Assembly: GCA_964638415.1 (NCBI GenBank)
Contig: CAZWYP010000001.1
Location: 53,706-117,705 of the forward strand
DNA: 64,000 bases
Reading direction: 5' to 3'
Source: an uncultured Gammaproteobacteria bacterium
Lineage (GTDB): Bacteria > Patescibacteriota > Patescibacteriia > UBA1558 > GWA2-36-10
Shown one piece after another: positions 1,616 through 39,077 of the stretch. Numbering within the stretch: position 1 is the stretch's first letter; each line of letters begins with the position of its first letter. A model generated the notes under the pieces. The model saw only the letters and a list, made by a program, of their open reading frames with translations. It was not told where the DNA came from and did not search any database. Both the position numbers and the translations under genes were made by a program.

Positions 1616-2332
1616 TTATTTTTTATCTACCACTTCTATGGTGCTTTTTTTAAAGCCAAAAGTCAGATATTGCTGCAAGATAGTAAACACCGTAGTTAAC
1701 AACCAGTAAAGCGTTAGTCCCGCTGGTAAACTAGCACCAATAATTATAGTGATAACCGGCATAAAATAAACCATTTGCTGACTTAAAGCATTAGCCGCAC
1801 TGTTGCTATTATGTGCTTTGGCCATCATCATTTTTGACTGCCAAAACTGACCCAAACCAGCCAAAATAGCCAGCAATATGCTGCGTTCTGACAAATCAAA
1901 AAAACCAAAAGCAATGGGGTTTAAGGTGCCAGGATTAGCAACAAAACTATAAAGGATATTACCATCAAACTCCGGTCCATTGCGTAATTCGTCAAAGAAA
2001 ACTCGATAAATAGCAAAGAGAATTGGTAGCTGGACTAAGATCGGCAAACAAGATCCAAAGGGATTTATTTTTTTCTCCTTATAAAGCGCCATAGTGGCGG
2101 CTGCCAGTTTCTCTTTTTCATCTTTGTGCTTTTCCTTCAGTGCTTCAATTTCTGGCTGCAGGGTCTGCAAAGCTTTTTGTGATTTAATTGCTCGTTTATT
2201 AAGCGGCCACAAAACAATCCTAATTATTAAGGTAATAAGAATGATGGCTATGCCTAAATCCTGCCAAGCCAGCACGTCATATAGCCAGACTAAAAGGTTG
2301 AAAATTGGTTGGTAAAAAATAGTATAAAACAT
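1616..2332 (-). CDS. yidC: membrane protein insertase YidC (short form)
   Basis: 238 aa multi-TM protein with a conserved YidC/Oxa1 core (LWPLNKRAIKSQ...MALYKEKKINPFGSCLPILVQLPILFAIY). Sits in the conserved yidC-yidD-rnpA-rpmH cluster. Confidence 0.9.
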   Translation of the reverse strand: MFYTIFYQPIFNLLVWLYDVLAWQDLGIAIILITLIIRIVLWPLNKRAIKSQKALQTLQPEIEALKEKHKDEKEKLAAATMALYKEKKINPFGSCLPILVQLPILFAIYRVFFDELRNGPEFDGNILYSFVANPGTLNPIAFGFFDLSERSILLAILAGLGQFWQSKMMMAKAHNSNSAANALSQQMVYFMPVITIIIGASLPAGLTLYWLLTTVFTILQQYLTFGFKKSTIEVVDKK

Positions 2333-2602: not shown

Positions 2603-2947
2603 CTATTTTTTACTGATCATAATCTTGTCTAGAGCAAACTGTAGTTGTTTTTTAATTTCCGGAAAAGTCAGTTTTAAGCTGCTGGGTTTAGCAATAATTA
2701 CCACGTCGTGTTTTTCCGTCAGTTTTTCTAATAGCTCTTTACTAGCGTTTCTTAGCCTTCTCTTTAACTGGTTGCGCTCAACAGCTTTTTTAGAAACCCT
2801 ATTGGAAACAACAAAGGTAATTCTGCTTTTTGGCTCGTTGTTTTTCTTATATCGAAAAACGAATTGGGGCAAAAAAAACGAGCGCCCGGTTGCTAACAAC
2901 CTTTTAATGTCTTGATCTTTATTTAAACGGTTGTTTTTAGGCAGCAT
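2603..2947 (-). CDS. rnpA: ribonuclease P protein component
   Basis: 114 aa basic protein. RnpA signature region ([25 protein letters not shown]) and a position just downstream of rpmH. Confidence 0.9.
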
Positions 2948-3300: not shown

Positions 3301-4674
3301 ATGGGTAATTTTGACAAAATCTGGCAAAGCGTTCTTGGGGAACTAGAGTTGTTAATAAGCCGGGCTAATTTTACAACCTGGTTTAAAAACACCCTCATTG
3401 TAGAACAAAATGATCAACAGGTGGTGATTGGAGTACCTAATGCCTTTACTAAGGTTTGGTTGGAAAAGAAGTATAACAAACAAATTAAGCAGGCCTTAGA
3501 AAACGTTCTGTCTAAAACTAATCTACAAGTTATCTACAGGGTAATAAACTCGAATAGTGTTGCTAATATTAGCCAAAACATAGAATCTCCTGTTCTTGAA
3601 AAAAAGGCGGTTGTGGATAAAGAAAACAACGAAAAGTTGGCTAATAATAGCAAATTTGGTCTTAATCCCAAATATACATTTAATAGCTTTATTGTGGGGG
3701 CTGGTAATGAGCTGGCCCAGGCGGCTGCCCAGGCGGCTGCTAAAAAGCCCGGGGAGCTTTATAATCCACTATTTATATATGGTGGGGTGGGGTTAGGAAA
3801 AACCCACCTTGTTCAAGCGGTTGGTAATTATATTTTGGCTAAAGATAGCACAAAAAAGGTTTTATATATTAATAGTGAAAAGTTTACCAACGACTTCATT
3901 TTTGCTATAAAAAATGGAAAAACCGACCATTTTAAACAGGTTTATCGAGAGGTTGATGTCCTTTTAATTGATGATATCCAGTTTATTGCTGGAAAAGAGC
4001 AGACTCAAGAGGAGTTTTTTCACACTTTTAACGCCTTACATCAAAACAATAAACAAATTGTTCTCTCTTCAGATCGGCCACCAAAAGCAATTTCAGGGGT
4101 GGAAAGCCGCCTTATTTCCCGTTTTGAGTGGGGAATGATTGCAGACATCTCTTTTCCAGATTTAGAGACCAGAATGGCCATTTTGGAGCTAAAATGCCAA
4201 GAAAAAAACTATTTGTTAGATAAGGAGATAATTGAGTTTATTGCTGAAAACATTCAAGAAAATATTAGGGAGCTAGAAGGGGCCCTTAACCGCCTAATTG
4301 CCTTTCATGAATTAAATAACACTCAACCCAGCATGGAAAGCGTCAAGGCTATTTTGGGTGGTATTTCAACTAATCCGCGGAAAGCTGGTTTAACCACTAA
4401 AAAACTAATAAAAACGATTTTAGACTATTATGATATTTCCGCCGACGATCTTTTAGGATCAAGTAGAAGGAAAGAGTTGGTTGTACCCAGACAAATAACC
4501 ATGTTCTTAATGCGTGAGGAATTAAAAGCCTCCTTCCCTAATATTGGTAATGATTTGGGTGGTCGTGATCACACCACCGCTATGCATGCATGTTTAAAAA
4601 TAGCGCAAGCAATTGAAATTGATGATAAAATAAAAAATGATGTGGCTGTTTTGAGACAAAAGGTTTATGAATAA
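3301..4674 (+). CDS. dnaA: chromosomal replication initiator protein DnaA
   Basis: 457 aa. AAA+ Walker A (GGVGLGKTHL), Walker B (LLIDDIQF) and a C-terminal DnaA-box-binding domain (VVPRQITMFLMREELKASFPNIGNDLGGRDHTTAMHA). Confidence 0.97.
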   Translation: MGNFDKIWQSVLGELELLISRANFTTWFKNTLIVEQNDQQVVIGVPNAFTKVWLEKKYNKQIKQALENVLSKTNLQVIYRVINSNSVANISQNIESPVLEKKAVVDKENNEKLANNSKFGLNPKYTFNSFIVGAGNELAQAAAQAAAKKPGELYNPLFIYGGVGLGKTHLVQAVGNYILAKDSTKKVLYINSEKFTNDFIFAIKNGKTDHFKQVYREVDVLLIDDIQFIAGKEQTQEEFFHTFNALHQNNKQIVLSSDRPPKAISGVESRLISRFEWGMIADISFPDLETRMAILELKCQEKNYLLDKEIIEFIAENIQENIRELEGALNRLIAFHELNNTQPSMESVKAILGGISTNPRKAGLTTKKLIKTILDYYDISADDLLGSSRRKELVVPRQITMFLMREELKASFPNIGNDLGGRDHTTAMHACLKIAQAIEIDDKIKNDVAVLRQKVYE

Positions 4675-4886: not shown

Positions 4887-5987
4887 ATGAAACTAACCTG
4901 TACGCAAGAAAACTTAAATCAGGGATTAAATATTGTTTCCCATATAGCAAATAAAAACAACAATCTTCCAATCTTAAATAATGTTTTACTAAAAGCAGAT
5001 AAGAATGGACTAACTCTAACCACTACGGACTTGGAAATTGGAATAAAGGCCTTTGTCCGCGGAAAGGTTGAAGAGGAGGGTGAGTTTACGGTGGCCGCCA
5101 AACTATTAAACGATTTTGTTGGACTACTACCCAAAGAAAACATCAACCTCTCCACAAACAACAACACACTATTAATTCAAAGTAGCAACCAACAAACAAG
5201 TATAAAGGGGTTGTTGGCCGAAGACTTCCCCTTAATACCGGAAATTGAAAAAGAAAATGAGCTAAGTATTGATGCTGTTAAGTTTAAACAGGCTCTTAGC
5301 CAAACAGCCTTTGCTGCTTCTCTAGATAGTTCACGAGCAGAGATTAACGCAGTTAACTTTAAGTTTGCTAAAAACGAGTTGGTTTTAGCCTCAACAGACA
5401 GCTATCGGCTAGCAGAAAAAAGGATAAAAATAAACAACAACCAAGAAAAAGAACTAATAATTCCACTAAAAGTAATCCAAGAGCTAGTTAGAGTTTTAAA
5501 TGATCAGGTGGAAAAAACAGTAAAAGTTTGTTTTAACGACAACCAAATAATGTTTTTGTTTGACGGCGTGGAATTAATCTCCCGCGTTGTTGATGGAAAG
5601 TACCCAGACTACCAGCAAATTATCCCAGAAAAGTTTACTAACGCCATTAAAAGTCAAATTAATAAACTTGTTCCAGCAATTAAATCAGCAGCGCTTTTTT
5701 GCAAACCAGGAATTAACGATGTTCGTTTAAAGTTTTCTAATACTAATAAACAAATAATTATTAACGCCGCCTCATCTCAAGCAGGGGAAAGCACAATAAA
5801 GGTTGCTGGAGAAATTGTTGGCGGGGACCTAGAGGTTGTTTTTAACTACCGCTACTTACTGGATGGGTTGAATAATATTACTGGTGATGAAGTGGTTATA
5901 AAAATAAATGACAACAACACCCCCGGCCTACTCCAAGCAAGTAAAGAGGAAGACTACCTTTATTTAATAATGCCAATTCGCCAATAA
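4887..5987 (+). CDS. dnaN: DNA polymerase III beta subunit (sliding clamp)
   Basis: 366 aa. Directly downstream of dnaA, with a three-domain clamp-like sequence (MKLTCTQENLNQGLNIVSHIA...). Confidence 0.93.
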   Translation: MKLTCTQENLNQGLNIVSHIANKNNNLPILNNVLLKADKNGLTLTTTDLEIGIKAFVRGKVEEEGEFTVAAKLLNDFVGLLPKENINLSTNNNTLLIQSSNQQTSIKGLLAEDFPLIPEIEKENELSIDAVKFKQALSQTAFAASLDSSRAEINAVNFKFAKNELVLASTDSYRLAEKRIKINNNQEKELIIPLKVIQELVRVLNDQVEKTVKVCFNDNQIMFLFDGVELISRVVDGKYPDYQQIIPEKFTNAIKSQINKLVPAIKSAALFCKPGINDVRLKFSNTNKQIIINAASSQAGESTIKVAGEIVGGDLEVVFNYRYLLDGLNNITGDEVVIKINDNNTPGLLQASKEEDYLYLIMPIRQ

Positions 5988-8876: not shown

Positions 8877-9545
8877 ATGAATAAAGGAGGAAAAAATAAA
8901 AAAGGATTTACCCTAATAGAACTCTTGGTGGTAATTGCAATAATTGGCACACTATCTTCAGTGGCAGTGATTAATTTAACAGAATCAAAAAATAAAGGTA
9001 GCGCCGCTAAAATGATTAAGGAAATTAAGCAAGTGGAAACTGGTTTGCGGGTGATGTGGAATGAAGAAGGACGCTGGGCCACACAATGCGATATACAAGC
9101 AGAGTACGGTATAAATGGTTTGTTTTGTGAAGGAGGAGAATATCCTTATGGATCAGGAAGTTGTTCTTTGCCAAACGGTTGTAACCACGATCCAGAGCCA
9201 ACTATTGTTTGGTTTATAGACAACACGGAATTTAGTCAATTTTTTCCACCAGAAACCAGACCACTGTTAGCTAGTTATGAATATGATAATGACAATGATA
9301 GCCATGACATAGGAAGCAATGGTTGCATTCTTGGTAGTAATCCAGGAGACCCAGTTGGCAGCTGTAATATTAGGCCTTATCGCGGCGTTAGTTTATATAT
9401 TCAAGGTATAGATTATCAAGAGGTTATTGATCAAACCATAGATGGTGGAGATGGTGGTTGTTGCGGTAAGTTTCTTTATGAACAAAGTGACTTAGATATG
9501 GGACGGGGAATTTATAAACTAGGAAACAACCCCACGGATTTTTAA
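8877..9545 (+). CDS. type IV pilin-like protein (class III signal peptide) with a Cys-rich globular domain
   Basis: Prepilin motif KKGFTLIELLVVIAIIG follows a short basic leader. The C-terminal region has 10 Cys. RBS-like AAAGGAGG precedes the start. Confidence 0.85.
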   Translation: MNKGGKNKKGFTLIELLVVIAIIGTLSSVAVINLTESKNKGSAAKMIKEIKQVETGLRVMWNEEGRWATQCDIQAEYGINGLFCEGGEYPYGSGSCSLPNGCNHDPEPTIVWFIDNTEFSQFFPPETRPLLASYEYDNDNDSHDIGSNGCILGSNPGDPVGSCNIRPYRGVSLYIQGIDYQEVIDQTIDGGDGGCCGKFLYEQSDLDMGRGIYKLGNNPTDF

Positions 9546-18255: not shown

Positions 18256-20616
18256 ATGCTAAAATACAATATATTATTTAAGAATATGGCCAGACGTCGT
18301 CGAACAAAAGATTATTCCAATCGCTTACTTGAAGCTGATAATAACTGGACAGTTAATCCGGAAACCAAAAAAGCGATTGCCATTGTTTTTATTTTTTTAT
18401 TGGCTTTTTTGGGAATATTGTCAATGTTTGATTTAGCCGGAACTTTTGGCAGTGTTTTGCGGATGGCCTTAGGTTATGCTTTCGGCTGGGGTGACTGGAT
18501 ATTTTTGCTTATTTTATTAGCCCTAGGCTACATTCTATTAAACAGCGATCGCTACCAAGTTAGATTTACTAATTATTTAGGACTACTGTTGTTTATTATT
18601 GGCTACTCGGGAATTTTTAATTTCTTTGTCACTAGATTAAATTATGATGAGATAGTAGATTTAGCTACAGGCGGTGGTGCTTTAGGATTTTTAATTGGAC
18701 AATTAACCAACCAATTTTTAGGTTTCTGGGGATCGCTGGTTATTTTACTGGCTATGGTAGTGGTGGGTGTTTTGTTAGGATTTAATACTTCATTCCGCAG
18801 CCTTGTTGACCGGGCTAAAGCCGCCGGTATTTTGAAAGAAAAGTTATTGCCGGTTATTGATGATGAAGAAGAAGAGCAAACCGCTGAATTTGTCGATGAA
18901 GAATTATTACAATCCGAAGAGGAAACCCCAACTGAAGAGGAGATGGCAGCAGATAGCGAGGAAGATGAAAAGTCTGAAGAAGTAAAAATCAACCAACCAA
19001 AAGAAAGAAAACAAACTGCTACTATTACCCGTCATCGCTTAAGAAAATTAGATATCCCTATTAACATTTTGACCTTTTCTCATTCCAAACCAGCTTCCGG
19101 AGACATTAATGCTAATATGGTAAAGATTAAAAAGACGTTGGAAAATTTTGGCATTGAAGTCGCTATGGGAGAGGTTAATGTTGGACCGACAGTCACCCAA
19201 TACACTTTGCGTCCAGCAGAAGGTGTTAAACTATCTCAGATTTTAACTCTACAAAATGACTTGGCCTTAGCTTTAGCTGCACACCCTCTGCGCATTGAAG
19301 CTCCGATTCCCGGCAAGTCTTTGGTAGGTATCGAAGTTCCCAACCAGGTGGTATCCACAGTAAAATTGAGAGAAGTTTTAGAAGATGAGGTATTTACCAA
19401 AAGAAAAAGCAATTTGCAGATTTCTTTGGGTAAGGACGTGGCTGGTTCTGCAAAGATGGCTAATTTAGGCAATATGCCGCACTTATTGATTGCCGGCGCT
19501 ACAGGTTCTGGCAAGTCAGTTTGTATTAATAATGTTATTCTCAGTCTGATGTACCAGAATTCTCCGGATGAGCTGAAGTTTATTTTAATCGATCCTAAGC
19601 GTGTGGAACTCTCCGTTTATAATAACATGCCTTACTTACTAACCCCAGTGATTAATGATATTGATAAAACCATCAACGCTTTGCGTTGGGCGGTTAAAGA
19701 AATGGATGAACGGTATAAGTTATTGCAAGCAGCCGGCAAGCGTAATATTGCTGCTTACAACAAAGCGGTAATTGTCAACAAGCTTCCTTATATTGTTGTG
19801 GTGATTGACGAATTAGCTGATTTAATGCAGGTAGCAGCTAAAGAAGTAGAGGCGGCAATCATCCGTTTAGCGCAAATGGCCAGAGCAGTGGGCATCCACT
19901 TAGTCTTAGCCACTCAGCGCCCTTCGGTTAACGTAATTACCGGCTTAATTAAAGCTAATATCACTTCCCGTATTGCTTTTGCGGTGGCTTCTAGTATGGA
20001 TTCCCGCACCATTATTGATGCCGCCGGCGCGGAAAAACTATTAGGTAAAGGAGATATGTTATTTATGACCGCGGAACTATCCAAGCCGCGTCGTATTCAG
20101 GGTGCTTATGTTTCTGATGAAGAAATTCAGGGAGTAGCAGACTTTGTTAAAGGCAAAGCCGAACCGGAGTATAAGGATGAGATTGTAGAAAAAACTGGAT
20201 CGGCTTTAGTGGGTGGAGGTTTTTCTGGCGGGGACAGCTTTGATGATGATTTGGCTATGGAGGCTAAAGAGATAGTAATTAAGGCTGGTAAGGCTTCTGC
20301 TACCTTGTTACAGCGCCGTTTGCGCGTTGGTTATGCTCGGGCCGCTCGCCTGTTAGATATTTTGGAAGAAATGGGAGTAGTTGGTCCAGCAGAAGGAGCA
20401 AAACCCAGAGAGGTTTTAATCACCCAGGATGATTTAGAAGAGAATTTTTCCAGCAGCTTAGATGAGGAAGAAGTAGAGGAAGTTCTAGATGACGAAAATT
20501 TTTCAGAGGAAGCGGAGGAGACTTACCAGGAAGAAGCAGAGCAGCCAGAAGAAGATAATAAAGAAGAGATGGACAAAAATGAAAAACCCTACTTTACCGA
20601 CGAGGAAGATAAGTAA
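18256..20616 (+). CDS. ftsK: DNA translocase FtsK/SpoIIIE
   Basis: N-terminal TM helices, an acidic linker, a motor domain with Walker A (GATGSGKS) and Walker B (VVIDELAD), and a gamma winged-helix (LLQRRLRVGYARAARLLDILEEMG). Alternative start at 18286. Ends in an unusually acidic tail. Confidence 0.92.
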   Translation: MLKYNILFKNMARRRRTKDYSNRLLEADNNWTVNPETKKAIAIVFIFLLAFLGILSMFDLAGTFGSVLRMALGYAFGWGDWIFLLILLALGYILLNSDRYQVRFTNYLGLLLFIIGYSGIFNFFVTRLNYDEIVDLATGGGALGFLIGQLTNQFLGFWGSLVILLAMVVVGVLLGFNTSFRSLVDRAKAAGILKEKLLPVIDDEEEEQTAEFVDEELLQSEEETPTEEEMAADSEEDEKSEEVKINQPKERKQTATITRHRLRKLDIPINILTFSHSKPASGDINANMVKIKKTLENFGIEVAMGEVNVGPTVTQYTLRPAEGVKLSQILTLQNDLALALAAHPLRIEAPIPGKSLVGIEVPNQVVSTVKLREVLEDEVFTKRKSNLQISLGKDVAGSAKMANLGNMPHLLIAGATGSGKSVCINNVILSLMYQNSPDELKFILIDPKRVELSVYNNMPYLLTPVINDIDKTINALRWAVKEMDERYKLLQAAGKRNIAAYNKAVIVNKLPYIVVVIDELADLMQVAAKEVEAAIIRLAQMARAVGIHLVLATQRPSVNVITGLIKANITSRIAFAVASSMDSRTIIDAAGAEKLLGKGDMLFMTAELSKPRRIQGAYVSDEEIQGVADFVKGKAEPEYKDEIVEKTGSALVGGGFSGGDSFDDDLAMEAKEIVIKAGKASATLLQRRLRVGYARAARLLDILEEMGVVGPAEGAKPREVLITQDDLEENFSSSLDEEEVEEVLDDENFSEEAEETYQEEAEQPEEDNKEEMDKNEKPYFTDEEDK

Positions 20617-29614: not shown

Positions 29615-29691
29615 GGGCTTGTAGCTCAGTTGGCTAGAGCGCCACATTCGCATTGTGGAGGTCAGGGGTTCGACTCCCCTCAAGTCCACCA
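29615..29691 (+). tRNA. tRNA-Ala (anticodon CGC)
   Basis: Acceptor GGGCTTG with a G3:U70 identity pair, anticodon loop TTCGCAT, T-arm GGGGTTCGACTCCCC, CCA encoded. Confidence 0.88.
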
Positions 29692-29699
29692 GGCATTTT

Positions 29700-29786
29700 G
29701 CCGAAGTGGTGGAATTGGCAGACACGCACGGTTCAGGGCCGTGTGAGCGTAAGCTCGTGGAGGTTCAAATCCTCTCTTCGGTACCA
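29700..29786 (+). tRNA. tRNA-Leu (anticodon CAG)
   Basis: Type II tRNA. Anticodon stem CACGG/CCGTG with loop TTCAGGG, long variable arm, T-loop TTCAAAT, CCA encoded. Confidence 0.85.
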
Positions 29787-29787
29787 G

Positions 29788-29864
29788 CGGGGTGTGGCGC
29801 AGTTGGCTAGCGCGCAGCGTTCGGGACGCTGAGGTCGCCCGTTCAAGTCGGGTCACCCCGACCA
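29788..29864 (+). tRNA. tRNA-Pro (anticodon CGG)
   Basis: C1:G72 acceptor (CGGGGTG/CACCCCG) typical of bacterial tRNA-Pro. Anticodon loop TTCGGGA, T-arm GCCCGTTCAAGTCGGGT, CCA encoded. Confidence 0.85.
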
Positions 29865-32705: not shown

Positions 32706-32848
32706 AAATTTAAAATAACAGGTATATTATAGCAGGTTTTCTGCATTTGCAAATAGCTAAGCTTAAAATTATTATGCTTGATAAAACCCTATTAGGTTAA
32801 CTAGTAATTTTTATTTACTTTAAGTGCCATTTTTAGTATAATATAACC

Positions 32849-33709
32849 ATGTCAAAAGTTAGAAAAGCCATTATTCCGGTAGCAGGACTAGGCACTCGCT
32901 TTTTGCCAGCTACCAAAGCCCAGCCCAAAGAAATGCTGTCGTTAGTGGATAAGCCGATTATCCAGTACATCGTAGAAGAAGCCGTAGCTTCGGGAATTGA
33001 GGAGATTATTTTTGTTACTTCGCAGAATAAGCGGGCAATTGAAGATCATTTTGACCGCAATTTTGAATTAGAATACCGCTTAAGGCAGAAGCATAAGAAT
33101 AAAGTATTGGAAGAGTTGTTAGCAATTTCCGATATGGCCCGCTTTATTTATGTTAGGCAAAAAACTCCCAAAGGATCAGGTCACGCTGTGCTTTGCGCGC
33201 GGGAATTAATTGGCGATGAGCCCTTTGCCTTGTTCTACGGAGATGATGTGGTGGATAGCAAAGTCCCAGCCATGAAACAGCTGATGAAAGTCTATGATAA
33301 ATACAATGACGTGGTTATTGGTGTTACTAAGGTAAATAAGAAAGATACTAGCAAATATGGTATTGTTGATCCGATTATGCTGGACGAGAAAACAGCGCAA
33401 ATCAAGAGGATAGTAGAAAAGCCAGATCCAGCCAAAGCTCCGTCCAATTTAGCTGTGACCGGAAGATATATTTTGCCGCCAGCTATTTTTGACTTATTAG
33501 CGGAAGCTAAGCCCGCTAAAGACGGTGAGATTTATATGACGGAAGCGATTGATAAGTATATCAAACAGCAAGCCGGTTATGCTTGCGCTTATTCCGGCAC
33601 CTACTATGACTGTGGCAATAAGCTGGGATTCACCAAAGCAGTAATTAACTTTGCCCTCAAACATCCGGATATTAGGCAGCCACTAAAAAAGTATTTAAAA
33701 GAATTATAG
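32849..33709 (+). CDS. galU: UTP--glucose-1-phosphate uridylyltransferase
   Basis: N-terminal KAIIPVAGLGTRFLPATKAQPKEML, and VEKP later in the sequence. 286 aa. Confidence 0.9.
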   Translation: MSKVRKAIIPVAGLGTRFLPATKAQPKEMLSLVDKPIIQYIVEEAVASGIEEIIFVTSQNKRAIEDHFDRNFELEYRLRQKHKNKVLEELLAISDMARFIYVRQKTPKGSGHAVLCARELIGDEPFALFYGDDVVDSKVPAMKQLMKVYDKYNDVVIGVTKVNKKDTSKYGIVDPIMLDEKTAQIKRIVEKPDPAKAPSNLAVTGRYILPPAIFDLLAEAKPAKDGEIYMTEAIDKYIKQQAGYACAYSGTYYDCGNKLGFTKAVINFALKHPDIRQPLKKYLKEL

Positions 33710-33711
33710 CT

Positions 33712-35076
33712 ATGAAAAGATTGAGAATTATCTCTTTATTAATCCTAGCCATTTTCTTGGTTACCACCGGTTTGGGTTGTAAAAACCCTATTTTAAAAGG
33801 GGAGGCTTTTAAACCGATTACCTTAACTTATTGGGGGGTATGGGATACTCCAGAGCAATTAGATAGCCTGATCAAAGCTTACCAAAGCAGCCACCCAACC
33901 ATTAAGGTCCAATACCGGAATTTCCGTTATGATGAATATGAGGCTAAGTTGTCGGAGGCTTTATGGGAAGACAGATTGCCTGATGTTTTTGCTATTCCCG
34001 CTGCTTGGCTAAGAGAATACCAAGACCGTCTAGAACCGATGCCCAAGAGCGTGCAGATACCGGTTAAGCAAGTGCAAGGCACGGTTAAAAAAGAGGAAAT
34101 TACTTCTCTGCAGACCATTAACAGCCTGTCGGTAAATGATATAAAGCGGCAGTACGTACAAGTTGTTTATGATAATGTAGTATTGGATAACAAGATTTAC
34201 GGCTTACCATATACAATGGATACTTTAGTGACCTTCTACAATCTTGATCTTTTAACCAGGGCGGGTATTGCCGAGCCCATTGTTGATTTTCATGATTTAG
34301 ACGCGCAGACTCCAAAGCTATCTAAAATTGGCACAGATAACAAGATTTATCAGTCAGCCGTAGCTCTAGGAGCTGCCGATAATATTCCCCGTTATTTTGA
34401 CATACTTTCTAGTATTATGATGGAAAACGGCGTGGAAATGAAAGGCCCAAGCTTTAGTCCTACTAGAGAGAAAGAGTCTGCAGATAGGTTTTTGAGTGCG
34501 CTAAATTTTTATTTAGCTTTTTCTGATCAAACCAAACAAGCTTTTTCCTGGACTCCAGACCTGCCCAATGCTTTTGAACAATTTGCTGAAGGAAAATTAG
34601 CTTACTTTTTCGGCTATAGTTACCATGCAGATGAATTACGCAAGCGAGGCGTTGCTTTTGAATGGGATATTGCTAATTTCCCGCAGGCCCGAGGATCGTC
34701 CGGCACCAAATACTACGCTAATTATTGGGTAAATGTCGTACCAAAGAAAGCTAAAAATAAGGACGCGGCCTGGAATTTTGTGCAAAGCACCGCCGGAGAA
34801 TCTTTAGTCAAGGATTATTTGCAGGAGAATAATAAACCAACCGCTTTGCGAAGCTTAATAGATGATCAATTACAGGATGAGGACATTAGGGTGTTTGCCT
34901 CTCAAGTTTTAACAGCAGATAATTGGTATCAGGGTTATGATATTAACGCTGCTGAACAGTATTTGGCTAATTTGATCAATGGTTTGCAGTCGGGAGAATT
35001 AGTTTTGGATAAGGAAGGGACAGTGATTGGCTTATTTATTAACCAAGTGAATCAAACTTATAAAAAACCAGAATGA
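33712..35076 (+). CDS. extracellular solute-binding-protein-like lipoprotein (SBP family 1-like)
   Basis: Signal peptide ending in LGC (lipobox-like). TYWGVWD and overall SBP_bac_1-like composition. No adjacent permease or ATPase genes. The stop overlaps the start of the next gene (ATGA). Confidence 0.6.
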   Translation: MKRLRIISLLILAIFLVTTGLGCKNPILKGEAFKPITLTYWGVWDTPEQLDSLIKAYQSSHPTIKVQYRNFRYDEYEAKLSEALWEDRLPDVFAIPAAWLREYQDRLEPMPKSVQIPVKQVQGTVKKEEITSLQTINSLSVNDIKRQYVQVVYDNVVLDNKIYGLPYTMDTLVTFYNLDLLTRAGIAEPIVDFHDLDAQTPKLSKIGTDNKIYQSAVALGAADNIPRYFDILSSIMMENGVEMKGPSFSPTREKESADRFLSALNFYLAFSDQTKQAFSWTPDLPNAFEQFAEGKLAYFFGYSYHADELRKRGVAFEWDIANFPQARGSSGTKYYANYWVNVVPKKAKNKDAAWNFVQSTAGESLVKDYLQENNKPTALRSLIDDQLQDEDIRVFASQVLTADNWYQGYDINAAEQYLANLINGLQSGELVLDKEGTVIGLFINQVNQTYKKPE

Positions 35077-36149
35077 AAAAAATAAACTGGTTTATTATTT
35101 CCCTTATATTTTTTTCGGCACCAGTAGTAGCTAGGGCAGGAATATTGGATGCTTTAGGTTGTATTCCTACCGGCACTTGCGGTTTGGCTGATGTTGAGCT
35201 CGGTTTTCAATTATTAACTAACTGGTTATTGTCAGCTATTGGCGCCTTGGGCTTATTATATTTTATCTGGGGGGCTGGCCAGTGGATCACTTCTTACGGC
35301 CGAGCAGAAAAGGTTTCTCATGGCCGAGAAATCATGATGGGATCGGTAACAGCTATAGTAATCGCTTTGGTTAGTTATGTATTAATTCAGTTTTTTGTTA
35401 ATGATGTTTTATTGGGAGGAAATAATAATGAATTAAGGATTTCTCTGGAGTGCGTAAATGCCGCTCAAGGAAAAGTTTGTAATGAGCCATTAAGAAACTA
35501 CGTCTGTAGCGGCACGTTTACTGAGGATGATAAGAAGACTTACAGCAATCTTTGTGTTACCCGTTGCCAGTTGCAGAATATTACCGGCGTACCCGGTGAT
35601 TGGAGTTGCTTAGTCAAGGGTAGTTTTATTGATAATGATCGGGTAGAAAAAATGGAAAGCGCTTGCCCGACAGAAGACTATATTTGTGTTAACACTCAGA
35701 CAGTCTCTAAACAAACTTTTGTGCCGCCTAGTGGCGGAGTTGGCGGCACAGGCTCTTGTGGCGGATTGGATGTTAGAGGCATTAATACCGCTCAGTGCAA
35801 TGATGCTTCTGCCGGCTTAACGGCTTTGTTAAGATGTTTAAGCTCTTTGCCTAATTTTCAACAGCAAGTAGTGATTACGAGTATTTCTGATGACCGTCAT
35901 ATTGGCAATTTGCAGGACTGCCAAGGAGATAGATATAATAGCAGCAGCTGTGTTCATACGCGCAACTCCTGTCATTATGGCGGAAGAGATTTGCGGCCAT
36001 ATTCTTGTGCAGTAGATTTGGCTTTAAGAGGCGGCGGTATTAGTTTTAGTGATATAGAGGCTATGGCTGACGGTTGCGGCGCTCAATATACCCTTAATGA
36101 AGGAGATCATGTTCATGCCAGTGTTTCCGGATGTAATTGTGATAATTAA
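35073..36149 (+). CDS. TrbC/VirB2-like T4SS-pilin-fold protein fused to a Cys-rich C-terminal domain ending in a putative LAS/M15-like zinc peptidase module
   Basis: Signal peptide, then two hydrophobic helices flanking WITSYG and a basic loop (shared with the four downstream paralogs). This is followed by about 240 aa with more than 20 Cys. The C-terminus (SCHYGG...SCAVDL...ADGCGAQY...GDHVHASV) resembles Peptidase_M15 / DUF882 zinc ligand motifs. Confidence 0.6.
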   Translation: MKKINWFIISLIFFSAPVVARAGILDALGCIPTGTCGLADVELGFQLLTNWLLSAIGALGLLYFIWGAGQWITSYGRAEKVSHGREIMMGSVTAIVIALVSYVLIQFFVNDVLLGGNNNELRISLECVNAAQGKVCNEPLRNYVCSGTFTEDDKKTYSNLCVTRCQLQNITGVPGDWSCLVKGSFIDNDRVEKMESACPTEDYICVNTQTVSKQTFVPPSGGVGGTGSCGGLDVRGINTAQCNDASAGLTALLRCLSSLPNFQQQVVITSISDDRHIGNLQDCQGDRYNSSSCVHTRNSCHYGGRDLRPYSCAVDLALRGGGISFSDIEAMADGCGAQYTLNEGDHVHASVSGCNCDN

Positions 36150-36157
36150 TCATATTA

Positions 36158-37111
36158 ATGAATAAAAGAAAATTCATTCTTGGTATTTTATTAATTAGCT
36201 GGCCACTATCTGTTCAAGCTGGTATTTTGGATAATTTATCTTGTGTCAGCACTGGAGCCTGCGGTTTATCTGATGTAGAATCCGGCTTTCAGCTGCTTAC
36301 TAACTGGTTATTAGGTGGGATTGGCGCTTTAGGCTTATTATATTTTATCTGGGGAGCTGGTCAGTGGATTACTTCGTATGGCCAACCTAACAAAATAGAA
36401 AAGGGCCGGGAAATCATGATGGGATCGGTGATTGCCATTGTTATTGCTTTGATTAGTTTTATTCTGGTGCAATTTTTTGTTAATGATGTATTATTAGGCG
36501 GGCAAAATAGCGACTTTAGAGTAAGTAGTGAATGTGTCGGGGCTAATCAGGGCAAAATTTGCAATGCTCCTTTGAGAAACTATGTCTGCAGCGGACAGTT
36601 TACTGAACCAGCTAAGCAAAATGCCAGCAATTTATGTATTACTGAATGTGAGTTAAAAAGTTTAATCGGTGAAGATAAATGGATTTGCGTTGATCGTAAA
36701 TTTGCCGAAGAGCTTGAGGAGGCATTTGAAGGCGCTAGTACTGAAGATGGTTGTCCGTCCGAGGAGCAGGTTTGTTTGAATTTATCTAGTGTCCCGGAGA
36801 ATGTTTTAAATTCTGGCGCTAATGGTGCCAATGCCGGTGAAGATTATCCTGGTTGTTGTCAGCTGGGATTTCAGAACTGTGAACCAAGTTCCGCTGAAGA
36901 TTGTCGCGCTCAATCTGGACAATTCTTTTCTCGCTCCTGCGGCCAAGTTAATTTTTGCAATTCTGGTTATGTACAGCAGAGCCATGGTTGTTGTGTAAGC
37001 GAATCCTCTCCAATTTCCTGTCAGGATGTTTCCCAAGGAGATGTTTGCGAGGAGAATGGTAACACTTTAATACCTTACCAGAATTGTAGTGAGCTTGATT
37101 ATTGCAATTAA
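36158..37111 (+). CDS. TrbC/VirB2-like T4SS-pilin-fold protein fused to a distinct Cys-rich C-terminal domain
   Basis: The N-terminal ~125 aa are about 75% identical to the preceding gene (GALGLLYFIWGAGQWITSYG...REIMMGSV...QFFVNDVLLGG). The C-terminal ~190 aa have more than 25 Cys. The first ~45 aa of this domain are shared with the paralog; the rest diverges. Confidence 0.6.
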   Translation: MNKRKFILGILLISWPLSVQAGILDNLSCVSTGACGLSDVESGFQLLTNWLLGGIGALGLLYFIWGAGQWITSYGQPNKIEKGREIMMGSVIAIVIALISFILVQFFVNDVLLGGQNSDFRVSSECVGANQGKICNAPLRNYVCSGQFTEPAKQNASNLCITECELKSLIGEDKWICVDRKFAEELEEAFEGASTEDGCPSEEQVCLNLSSVPENVLNSGANGANAGEDYPGCCQLGFQNCEPSSAEDCRAQSGQFFSRSCGQVNFCNSGYVQQSHGCCVSESSPISCQDVSQGDVCEENGNTLIPYQNCSELDYCN

Positions 37112-37136
37112 ACAAAAATTAAATTATATTTTATCT

Positions 37137-37466
37137 ATGAGTAAGCAAAAAAACAAGTTATTATTTGCCACTATTACCGGATTATTCTTACCCTTAGCCA
37201 GCCAGGCCGCAGTCAGTCTCAGTAATCCTTTGCAAGCAGATAGCTTGCCGGAGCTAATTAATAACGTCATTAAAGGATTGTTGGGAGTGGTGGGAGCTAT
37301 TTCTTTATTGATGATAGTAATTGGCGGAATTTTATGGATGACTTCTGGTGGTAACTCGGACCGCATTAAGCGCGGTAAAGACACCTTGGTTTGGGCGGTT
37401 ATTGGCTTAGTGGTAGTTTTCTTGAGTTATGCCATTATTAATTTTGTTTTCCAGTCATTAGGTTAA
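37137..37466 (+). CDS. TrbC/VirB2-like T4SS pilin-like small protein
   Basis: 109 aa. Signal peptide (LPLASQAA), helix 1, WMTSGGN motif, basic loop (SDRIKRGKD), helix 2. Start set at the internal ATG 37137; the track ORF begins at 37089. Confidence 0.6.
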   Translation: MSKQKNKLLFATITGLFLPLASQAAVSLSNPLQADSLPELINNVIKGLLGVVGAISLLMIVIGGILWMTSGGNSDRIKRGKDTLVWAVIGLVVVFLSYAIINFVFQSLG

Positions 37467-37545
37467 ACTCAGATTGAAAAAAAATATAAATTATTGTATA
37501 ATACATTTATAAATATTAAAGATTTTTTGGAAAGGGGGTGACATA

Positions 37546-37893
37546 ATGAAAAAAATTATCGCAGGTCTATTGTTATTTATGCCCATGATGGCTTCCGCAC
37601 AAGATGTTTTTGGTATTAATGATTTAAATAACAGTAATTTAGGAACCGCTGATCTTAAAACCACGATTAATCAGATTTTGTCCGTGATTTTGGGATTTTT
37701 AGGAATCATTGCTACCCTGATTATTTTGTTAGGTGGATTCAAATGGATGACTTCACAAGGTAATAGTGATAAGGTGGATGAAGCTAAGAAATTAATTGGC
37801 GCCGGCATCGTCGGTTTAGTGATCATCTTAGCCGCTTACGCCATTGTCCGTTTCGTCTTGACAGAAGTTTACGACGCTACCCAAGAAGCATAA
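37546..37893 (+). CDS. TrbC/VirB2-like T4SS pilin-like small protein
   Basis: 115 aa. Strong RBS AAAGGGGGTGA upstream. Signal peptide (MMASAQD), helix 1, KWMTSQGNSDKVDEAKK loop, helix 2. Confidence 0.65.
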   Translation: MKKIIAGLLLFMPMMASAQDVFGINDLNNSNLGTADLKTTINQILSVILGFLGIIATLIILLGGFKWMTSQGNSDKVDEAKKLIGAGIVGLVIILAAYAIVRFVLTEVYDATQEA

Positions 37894-37913
37894 TTTTGAC
37901 TATCTTTATTTAT

Positions 37914-37954
37914 TATAGTCTAGACTATAGTAGGTCAAAATTTTTGACCTACTA
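37914..37954. promoter_or_regulatory. two adjacent perfect palindromes (candidate operator) between pilin-like genes 4 and 5
   Basis: TATAGTCT|AGACTATA (37914..37929) and TAGTAGGTCAAAA-t-TTTTGACCTACTA (37928..37954), read directly from the sequence. Not followed by a U-run on the plus strand. Confidence 0.4.
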
Positions 37955-37976
37955 AGGCGTGGATTATAAACTACAT

Positions 37977-38360
37977 ATGCTAAAAAAAATATTTGCTTTT
38001 CTTCTTTTATTGCCTTCAACAGCCAATGCTTTGACTGCTGCCGACACTGGTTTGGATGACGCTGCTTCCGGCACCGGTCTTAATATGGATTTAACTTTAA
38101 GTGGCTGGGTTAGTTTGATTATCCGAGGATTTTTAGGACTATTAGCCACCATCTTTATTATCATGATTATCGTTGGCGGTTTTCAATGGATGACTTCCGG
38201 CGGTAATGAGAAAAAGATAGAATCAGCCAAAGGTATGATTAGCAATGCGGTAATTGGTGTGGTAATTGTTGTAATTTCCTATGCTATTACTATTTTTGTC
38301 TTCGAAGTCTTATTGGATACTGACGGTAGTGATGGAGGAGACGGTTTCGGCGGCGGTTAA
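37977..38360 (+). CDS. TrbC/VirB2-like T4SS pilin-like small protein with a Gly/Asp-rich C-terminal tail
   Basis: Signal peptide (LLLPSTANA), helix 1, QWMTSGGNEKKIESAKG loop, helix 2, then the tail DTDGSDGGDGFGGG. An alternative GTG start lies at 37959. Confidence 0.6.
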   Translation: MLKKIFAFLLLLPSTANALTAADTGLDDAASGTGLNMDLTLSGWVSLIIRGFLGLLATIFIIMIIVGGFQWMTSGGNEKKIESAKGMISNAVIGVVIVVISYAITIFVFEVLLDTDGSDGGDGFGGG

Positions 38361-38376: not shown

Positions 38377-38409
38377 AAAACCCGTTAAGTAAAACTTAAC
38401 GGGTTTTTT
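38377..38409. terminator. bidirectional rho-independent terminator
   Basis: AAAA-CCCGTTAAG-taaaa-CTTAACGGG-TTTTTT between convergent genes. Likely ends the long plus-strand operon. Confidence 0.8.
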
Positions 38410-38426: not shown

Positions 38427-39077
38427 CTATCTGGTGGCGTAAAGGTGAGCCACCCAGTCTATTCGGCGGCCCTGCCAATCTTGATCTTTCTTTTCTCGAT
38501 CAATGTACAGAGTGAAGCGGTAGGTTTTTTTAAACCCATCTTCCCTCTGGTAGAGAAAATTAATTTGGCCAGGAGCCACAGCAGTAATTTCACTGTATTG
38601 ACTGGGATACAGTAAGCCATACTGGTTGCCGCGGTCATCCCAAGCATAGACCGGCCAAGGAGTGGAATTAACCACAATTCCCATTTGCAAGACAATGTCT
38701 CGCAAAAAGTTGTCGTCCAGTATAACGGATACCGTGTCTGAAAGTCTTCCTGGCTTTTCCACGCCGATCTTGTACTCATCGTCTTGCCAGCCGTTTTCTT
38801 CCCACCACTTGACGACAAAGGTGATGAGGTCGCGGCGGTCGGGATAAAAAAGCTCGGTTTCTCCCGGGCGAATCAGAATCATGTCGGTTGTGCCGGCATT
38901 CGTCTTGTGCCCAACAAAGACCTCATGTTCAGCGCTGTCGGGATTGGTGAAGGCGATAATTGCCTTTTGAGCATAGGGTTGTTCATGCTGCAATGATTTC
39001 TGGTAGCGATGAGCGCACCCACAATAGCTTGCAGAAGCTAACAGTAGGCCAAAAATGGCCAAATTTTGCCACTTCAT
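38427..39077 (-). CDS. secreted hypothetical protein
   Basis: 216 aa with an N-terminal signal peptide (MKWQNLAIFGLLLASASY). No recognisable domain. Local composition appears more GC-rich than neighbouring genes; this is a visual impression only. Confidence 0.5.
   Translation of the reverse strand: MKWQNLAIFGLLLASASYCGCAHRYQKSLQHEQPYAQKAIIAFTNPDSAEHEVFVGHKTNAGTTDMILIRPGETELFYPDRRDLITFVVKWWEENGWQDDEYKIGVEKPGRLSDTVSVILDDNFLRDIVLQMGIVVNSTPWPVYAWDDRGNQYGLLYPSQYSEITAVAPGQINFLYQREDGFKKTYRFTLYIDREKKDQDWQGRRIDWVAHLYATR

Follow-up and report, generated by a model that had tools for sequence, protein, structure and literature searches.

How do two adjacent genes come to share one N-terminal half and yet end in quite different cysteine-rich C-terminal domains, and to what kind of surface system do they belong? 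The question is raised by a pair of open reading frames (ORFs) within a 64,000-nt stretch, hereafter the window, of contig CAZWYP010000001.1 (assembly GCA_964638415.1, contig positions 53,706-117,705, forward strand; Patescibacteriota in GTDB), to which all coordinates below refer unless they are prefixed by the name of another locus. The focal ORF, FUS_B (36158..37111, plus strand, 317 aa), is intact and starts 8 nt past the end of its upstream paralog FUS_A (35073..36149, plus strand, 358 aa). We find that FUS_B holds the conserved "lead" position in a tandem, chromosomal array of VirB2/TrbC-like pilin genes in this ultra-small Patescibacteria (candidate phyla radiation, CPR) genome. The observation that started the work, an initial annotation describing a pilin-like N-terminus joined to different ectodomains in the two genes, is real and for the most part was correctly described, once several of its numbers are corrected and its account of how the pair arose is set aside.

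BLASTP aligns FUS_A and FUS_B across 233 aa at 54% identity (E = 2e-79) and finds no significant match beyond; after about focal residue 225 the identity is 21%, the chance level, and in this alignment check the idea of a shared N-terminal portion followed by unrelated C-terminal domains survived. Identity within the shared part is uneven, being 27-30% in the signal peptide (focal residues 1-20), 78% in the pilin hairpin (residues 21-117), 62% over residues 126-170 and 46% over the longer segment 118-210. The figure of about 75% that had been given for residues 1-125 applies only to the mature part (79/105 for residues 21-125), the whole segment being 68% identical (85/125). Similarity at the DNA level between 35073..35430 and 36158..36515 is recognisable, as had been noted, and not high (69%, 250/361 aligned columns). 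A shared Cys module does follow the hairpin; its length is however about 85 aa rather than about 45, with eight Cys in register from C126 to C206. With 22 Cys (6.9%) against a background of 0.52% in the 44 other genes of the window, FUS_B is enriched 13-fold (binomial P = 5e-18), which bears out the extreme Cys richness first reported, and both of the paired-Cys motifs that had been pointed out, GCCQLGFQNCE and HGCCVSE, are found in it. FUS_A has 20 Cys.

The N-terminal half of FUS_B is a hairpin of the VirB2/TrbC type, the pilin of type IV secretion systems (T4SS). It begins with a Sec-type signal peptide (…PLSVQA|GILD; residues 1-20, 36158..36217, plus strand), seen as a hydrophobic N-terminus, which is the least conserved segment across paralogs and orthologs (22-47% identity) and is followed directly by the nearly invariant A21 and G22 and the invariant D25. 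The hairpin itself (residues 21-117, 36218..36508, plus strand), with a conserved Cys pair, C29/C35, at its mature N-terminus, was identified by Pfam, BLASTP and AlphaFold2 (AF2). The Pfam T4SS_pilin family (PF18895, curated gathering threshold 26.6 bits) matches FUS_B with E = 2e-4 and 21.7 bits and FUS_A at a sub-threshold 18.3 bits, and among the homologous proteins (given P-numbers here) a precomputed PF18895 match above the threshold exists for the orthologs P0005-7 and P0009-13. Focal residues 1-121 also match the adjacent pilin at 37137..37466 by BLASTP (E = 2e-11), which places them in homology with bona fide family members. AF2 predicts two helices, 37-72 and 77-112, with a predicted local distance difference test score (pLDDT) of about 76-79, joined by the short basic loop SYGQPNKIEKGRE, and the hydropathy of FUS_B peaks at residues 15, 55 and 92-106, such that signal peptide, two hydrophobic helices and short basic loop together give the T4SS-pilin layout. 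The earlier term "pilin-fold" is correct with a qualifier, in that the fold is that of a VirB2-type T4SS pilin; a type IV pilin is rejected, as neither FUS_A nor FUS_B matches N_methyl (PF07963) and both have two helices where a type IV pilin would have a single one.

FUS_A and FUS_B are the first of five consecutive tandem pilin genes (35073..38360), an arrangement that falls within the definition of a VirB2 array (at least two pilin genes, in tandem or one gene apart). The remaining three, all on the plus strand, encode short pilins devoid of Cys, of 109 aa (37137..37466; T4SS_pilin 54.4 bits, TrbC (PF04956) 40.8 bits), 115 aa (37546..37893; T4SS_pilin 41.3 bits) and, from a GTG start, 133 aa (37959..38360; T4SS_pilin 31.6 bits); all three pass the T4SS_pilin threshold and two are also above that of TrbC/VirB2. 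Upstream, a conserved block opens with a GalU-like gene (Pfam NTP_transferase; 32849..33709, plus strand) and continues with an orphan solute-binding protein (SBP; Pfam SBP_bac_1 and SBP_bac_8, E = 7e-19 and 8e-20; 33712..35076, plus strand), whose stop codon overlaps the FUS_A start. The window ORFs scanned gave no match to an ABC permease or ATPase family, and the genes flanking the SBP are not permeases.

This order is widely kept. In related genome loci (given L-numbers) from metagenome-assembled genomes of Parcubacteria, Nomurabacteria, Komeilibacteria, Uhrbacteria and other Patescibacteria, the core order of SBP, one or two long Cys-rich pilins and then short pilins occurs in 23 of the 30 loci counted (L003-L032), with the NTP_transferase gene before the SBP in 21, and it holds across classes, including Uhrbacteria where the SBP is only 34-38% identical. 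The long lead pilins of those loci have 170-485 aa and 8-24 Cys, and are always followed by three to ten short pilins with no Cys or almost none; further members of the block, present in part of the loci, are a minus-strand gene of unknown function, DUF2079, YebC, RuvC and GT5. The loci closest to the window (L002-L010) have one long pilin each, and short pilins 1, 2 and 3 are positional orthologs of those of L002 (65%, 74% and 46% identity), which suggests a multi-subunit set of fixed composition, not antigenic copies free to vary. A mobile element or conjugative island is rejected as the setting, the housekeeping neighbours being syntenic across classes and the region lying next to dnaA.

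Beyond the hairpin, FUS_B consists of small Cys modules. A linker and an 8-Cys module (residues 118-210, 36509..36787, plus strand), delimited by conservation and AF2, carry C126, C135, C144, C160, C164, C177, C199 and C206; seven of these eight (all but C206), together with W175, Y142 and G146, are invariant in the 13 homologs aligned. AF2, given this 13-sequence alignment, models the module as a small alpha/beta domain at pLDDT 75-89, and it aligns weakly with the ectodomains of Uhrbacteria lead pilins (hhalign P = 1.7e-4). The tail that follows is made of two tandem 6-Cys modules of the general pattern CC-x6-12-C-x7-8-C-x7-15-C-x5-C, the first (PGCC-x6-C-x7-C-x11-C-x5-C; residues 231-267, 36848..36958, plus strand) found in a pattern scan that covered 13 proteins and the second (HGCC-x8-C-x8-C-x12-C-x5-C; residues 276-316, 36983..37105, plus strand) by hhalign, which on comparing alignments of the first and second copies gives P = 2.2e-5 and supports an internal repeat. 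All 12 tail Cys are invariant across the six aligned orthologs. A profile of this tail run against 1.84 billion representative proteins recovered just 10, of which nine are pilin fusions or fragments of them (two without the 8-Cys module) and one, P0020, is no pilin at all: this 185-aa protein has three tandem 6-Cys modules and then an IPTL-CTERM sorting signal. Since the module occurs in a non-pilin protein, it is a mobile extracellular repeat unit that is not restricted to pilins. Neither the 8-Cys nor the 6-Cys modules match Pfam (E up to 10) or NCBIfam (E up to 1), and phmmer against the PDB sequences gives a best E of only 0.71.

Across the family the modules are combined in several ways. 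Hairpin and 8-Cys module alone make up P0008-13 and the pilins of L007-L010; the addition of two 6-Cys modules gives FUS_B, P0002, P0004-7 and P0014-16; P0017 and P0018 have the two 6-Cys modules directly after the hairpin with the 8-Cys module absent; FUS_A joins hairpin and 8-Cys module to a Hedgehog-like hydrolase; and L011, P0021 and others consist of hairpin and hydrolase alone. This variety upholds the original picture of a constant pilin-like anchor with exchanged ectodomains. The polarity implied at first, in which the Cys-rich tail of FUS_B was the novelty, is reversed: the single lead pilins of L002-L005 have the same layout of 22-24 Cys as FUS_B, and the FUS_B architecture is the ancestral one, with FUS_A an old, derived paralog in which a Hedgehog-like hydrolase stands in place of the 6-Cys modules. 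In some Patescibacteria arrays we also observe a Cys-rich domain placed N-terminal to a VirB2 hairpin (L013:9239-10198, L024:8056-8982); a Cys-rich domain on either side of the hairpin fits VirB2 topology, because both VirB2 termini are outside.

What, then, is the different tail of FUS_A? That upstream gene (VirB2-like hairpin, 8-Cys module and tail, recognised by T4SS_pilin and by profile) had been credited with a peptidase-like C-terminus, and profile comparison with PDB agrees: the tail (35742..36146, plus strand) belongs to a Patescibacteria-only family whose invariant positions comprise I[TS]SI.D, C.H...SCHYGG, S.A.D, H.H.S and a C-terminal Cys, and when a profile of this family is searched against all PDB sequences, 23 of 23 matches are Hedgehog N-domains. 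The best E falls from 0.067 with four sequences in the profile to 9.6e-4 with 18, and the profile alignments span the zinc-binding residues as well as the catalytic His and Glu (CxH..SCHYGG, AxD and E..HxHxS). Pairwise BLASTP of the tail with the Sonic hedgehog (Shh) N-domain, using an Shh sequence checked against 6e1h, gives E = 0.008. FUS_A resembles the Hedgehog/LAS hydrolases in that its tail family conserves H...D...E..HxH, arranged and spaced as are the zinc-binding and catalytic residues of Shh; the family differs from Hedgehog in several extra Cys and in 7-8 residues inserted between SCHYGG and AxD. Because unbiased PDB profile searches return Hedgehog N-domains only, the tail can be placed in the Hedgehog/DD-peptidase (M15A-like) group, the bacterial members of which are peptidoglycan peptidases (PMC6027127, PMC8052667). 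It matches no Pfam peptidase model, and a single-sequence AF2 model of it reached a pLDDT of 41.7, the fold search from that model being uninformative.

The same tail is found on other pilins. In L011 (L011:9956-10894) a pilin that passes the threshold (T4SS_pilin 32.3 bits) is joined directly to a FUS_A-type tail, and the profile search gave 17 further members of the tail family, several of them with T4SS_pilin N-termini (P0021-P0037). A word-indexed protein search with the 148-aa FUS_A tail alone returned no matches and also missed its parent protein P0003; such a negative with a single short query is weak evidence, because a four-sequence profile of the same region found the 17. A metagenome scan with the FUS_A tail recovered only L033. 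The fusions suggest a pilin-anchored zinc hydrolase, the more striking part of the locus, which lies in the neighbouring gene. The Hedgehog/DD-peptidase zinc and catalytic motifs (H-x(n)-D, H-x-H) do not occur in the focal tail, in which H276 is the only His, and only FUS_A has them, in agreement with the initial annotation, which had FUS_B without a peptidase-like tail.

The separation of the two genes is old. Synonymous sites of FUS_A and FUS_B differ by a proportion (pS) of 0.67 and a corrected distance (dS) of 1.66 in the pilin part, with pS 0.77 in the 8-Cys module, a divergence as saturated as that between orthologs of different genomes. Truncated ORFs directly upstream of P0002 (L033) and P0004 (L034), orthologs that are 61% and 44% identical to FUS_B, end as FUS_A does in ...DEGSH[VL]H[VS]SV.GC, and because FUS_A-type tails sit upstream of both, the pair predates the P0002 and P0004 lineages. 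The ratio of nonsynonymous to synonymous divergence (dN/dS) is 0.10 for the pilin part of the paralogs, 0.07-0.21 in hairpin comparisons and, for the focal tail, 0.14 against P0002 and 0.36 against P0004; since dS is saturated these ratios are rough only, and none nears 1. FUS_B appears to be under purifying selection, and a pseudogene or chance ORF is rejected, the gene being conserved with dN/dS well below 1. The account proposed earlier was that the pair arose by recent tandem duplication, after which the tail was replaced under diversifying selection on a surface-exposed part. Adjacency, a common N-terminal half, the strong variation of residues between the Cys and the 24-40% tail identity of distant orthologs all agree with that account, which we nevertheless find scarcely credible: paralog dS is saturated, the same pair is present in at least two other lineages (L033, L034) beside orthologs of only 61% and 44% identity, tail dN/dS gives diversifying selection no support, and it is the focal tail that is ancestral. 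In this tandem pair, a protein identity of 75% was no sign of recent duplication.

A further possibility is that gene conversion between the tandem paralogs keeps their N-terminal halves alike, so that the locus would hold one anchor cassette with two alternative heads. A neighbour-joining tree of the hairpin and 8-Cys region groups FUS_A, FUS_B and P0002 with 82% bootstrap and leaves P0004 outside, and the grouping that orthology predicts (FUS_B with P0002 and P0004, to the exclusion of FUS_A) receives 0% support even though the P0004 locus already has a FUS_A-type gene upstream; pS also dips locally to 0.48-0.54 over codons 51-75. Overall dS is however saturated, such that any conversion would be old; co-evolution with shared partner pilins could yield the same tree; and the tree lacks the N-terminal parts of the FUS_A orthologs of L033 and L034, where the contigs are truncated. 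The tree thus hints at old gene conversion or at co-evolution of the N-terminal halves, and conversion itself we put forward tentatively, as rather less than an even prospect.

As to what the array does, the best explanation overall, and one in which we place a little more belief than doubt, is that FUS_B is a lead pilin with a disulfide-rich outer domain, a minor or tip subunit that displays a binding module; by analogy, a role as a surface- or pilus-displayed binding module is likely. VirB2 and TraA pilins have both termini outside the cell, and because both face outward the extension should be exported. FUS_B would be exported by Sec, its hairpin inserting in the membrane and its C-terminal extension, locked by up to 11 disulfides (2 + 8 + 12 Cys), lying outside the cell. 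Given a VirB4-type machine encoded elsewhere, it would co-assemble with the three short Cys-free pilins, and the single bulky FUS_B would serve as the minor or tip subunit that shows a rigid, disulfide-knotted binding module to a host surface. FUS_A may, at that same site, display a hydrolase of the peptidoglycan type, in a wall-cutting role.

Several observations weigh against this explanation. FUS_B itself misses the T4SS_pilin gathering threshold (21.7 vs 26.6 bits); fold searches gave only generic helical hairpins, Foldseek of the AF2 model against PDB finding nothing below E = 1 and, as its third match, an archaeal conjugation pilus (E = 2.8); and the 6-Cys tail is modelled at low confidence (pLDDT 31-69), from which no disulfide map can be derived. 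Because the Cys modules match nothing in Pfam, NCBIfam or PDB, "binding module" is an analogy only. Among the window ORFs scanned there is no match to the VirB4, VirB6, VirD4 or VirB8 families, and because no machine family is among them, the link to a T4SS machine is assumed. An adhesin role leaves the conserved coupling to the SBP and the GalU-like gene unexplained, and none of the papers drawn on here reports a VirB2-type pilus visualised in a Patescibacterium.

The main rival takes up that coupling. The hairpin may be a membrane anchor only, with no pilus involved, and the ectodomains and the co-transcribed SBP would capture or process host glycans or peptidoglycan fragments for uptake. 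That the SBP precedes the lead pilin in 23/30 loci across classes, that its stop codon overlaps the FUS_A start and that the T4SS machine is missing from the ORFs scanned in the 64-kb window would all follow, and the hydrolase paralog would make products of the muropeptide type. The ever-present short pilins, Cys-free and without a cargo domain, make little sense as anchors, however, and that they are positional orthologs suggests an assembly of several defined subunits; a genetic link between VirB2 arrays and the T4SS is, moreover, reported for Saccharibacteria (PMC10633639). We consider it unlikely, if by no means far-fetched, that the anchor is all there is. Another reading concerns the chemistry of the tail, which with about 13% Cys and vicinal CC pairs could be a metal-binding (Zn, Fe, Cu) or redox domain in place of a disulfide-stabilised scaffold. 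Many CPR organisms are anaerobic, and disulfides form less readily there. Yet the Cys count is even in each unit (2, 8, 6, 6), their spacing is strictly conserved, the Cys are accompanied by no conserved His, Asp or Glu, and the same module occurs in the secreted IPTL-CTERM protein P0020. An MdbA-like oxidoreductase together with VKOR is enriched in CPR genomes (bioRxiv 10.1101/335083), which makes extracellular disulfides plausible, and we regard a metal or redox domain as very unlikely.

Tandem arrays of 2-11 VirB2 genes have been described in Patescibacteria (PMC12102498, Quinonero-Coronel et al. 2025), and the array is essential in the cultured Southlakia epibionticum, the sole species tested (PMC10633639, Wang et al. 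2023). The role of Patescibacteria VirB2 arrays has been called completely unknown (PMC11665869). Of 1948 assemblies with both pilin genes and virB4, 1135 have the two close together and about 40% do not (PMC12102498); no PrgB-type adhesin was detected in the Patescibacteria T4SS (PMC12102498, PMC10633639), and VirB1 is absent from most genomes with VirB2 homologues in the published survey. The missing PrgB-type adhesin and the essentiality of the array leave a free niche for an adhesin. Our array is similar to those published in being a set of tandem, sequence-divergent PF18895/PF04956 pilins on a CPR chromosome of a monoderm lineage, and its five genes fall inside the reported range. However, it differs in its long lead pilins with Cys-rich or enzymatic ectodomains, which the consulted portions of PMC12102498 and PMC10633639 do not mention; in having no virB4 homolog among the window ORFs scanned and being coupled instead to an SBP and a GalU-like gene; in long-pilin hairpins that are 78% identical as compared with a reported within-array maximum of 54%; and in short pilins that are positional orthologs across genomes and not freely varying copies. 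In the open-access literature searched, we found no long pilins with Cys-rich or enzymatic domains, no SBP linkage and no enzyme or binding domain joined to a VirB2 hairpin.

Canonical conjugative pilins have about 70-120 aa and are not known to carry a globular domain. FUS_B is similar to VirB2, TrbC and TraA in its signal peptide, two hydrophobic helices, basic loop and outward placement of both termini, and differs from them in a C-terminal ectodomain of 200 aa with 20 Cys and in a host genome without an outer membrane. Likeness to VirB5 or to the large minor pilins of type IV pili extends to the proposed role only, that of a specialised binding subunit, present in 1-2 copies per array as against several plain subunits; there would be no relationship in sequence or fold, VirB5 being all-helical and soluble and type IV minor pilins having the N-methyl motif. 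P0020 shares with FUS_B the same 6-Cys module (GCC-x6-C-x8-C-x10-13-C-x5-C) in a protein that is secreted and anchored, but its anchor is the C-terminal IPTL-CTERM sorting signal and not an N-terminal pilin hairpin.

Arrays of VirB2-type pilins belong to the small number of features marking off Patescibacteria, and the genes of the array described here are not interchangeable: their order is fixed, and one or two specialised subunits in the lead carry an extracellular pair of Cys-knot modules or a putative zinc hydrolase. Surveys had found neither an adhesin nor a wall-breaching activity, and for both the locus offers concrete candidates. At present we can only speculate, as a distinctly unlikely extension, that the lead pilins are the missing host-contact parts of a Patescibacterial VirB2 filament, in which a disulfide-knotted tip would recognise the host, the hydrolase sister would cut the host's or the cell's own wall and the SBP would capture the resulting products. 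The conserved GalU-SBP-pilin block would in that case form a feeding organelle complete in itself and separate from the arrays linked to virB4.

The window takes in the neighbourhood of the replication origin, and its genes include yidC (1616..2332, minus strand), rnpA (2603..2947, minus strand), dnaA (3301..4674) and dnaN (4887..5987), as well as ORFs of rpoB/C size, FtsK, RecA, RuvABC, PBP1 and Pol I; the FtsK at 18256..20616 is a true FtsK, because its alpha and gamma domains are both present. The pilin array sits about 32 kb from dnaA, and T4SS genes near the replication origin have been reported in the literature for Paceibacteria. Promoter-like sites precede the GalU-like gene (32814-32842) and, with 11/12 matches, short pilin 2 (37474-37502). 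A terminator scan returned a hairpin at 38377..38407 (AAAACCCGTTAAGT TTT ACTTAACGGGTTTT) whose 14-bp stem is bordered by runs of A and T; it lies between the array and a convergent minus-strand gene and is likely a bidirectional terminator. That convergent gene (38427..39077, minus strand, 216 aa) matches nothing in Pfam or NCBIfam, opens with a signal- or lipoprotein-like sequence and is kept at the same position in L003, L005, L008 and L009 (24-36% identity where read). With 8 Cys (3.6%), a 222-aa N_methyl type IV pilin-like protein at 8877..9545 ranks second in the window for Cys content; it is part of a pilus system separate from the VirB2-type array. Rfam at gathering threshold returns four tRNAs and misses a tRNA-Pro at 29788..29864 that ARAGORN reports; the five found by ARAGORN (Ser-CGA, Arg-CCG, Ala-CGC, Leu-CAG and Pro-CGG, at 29615..29864, 26547 and 28364) all have C as the first anticodon base.

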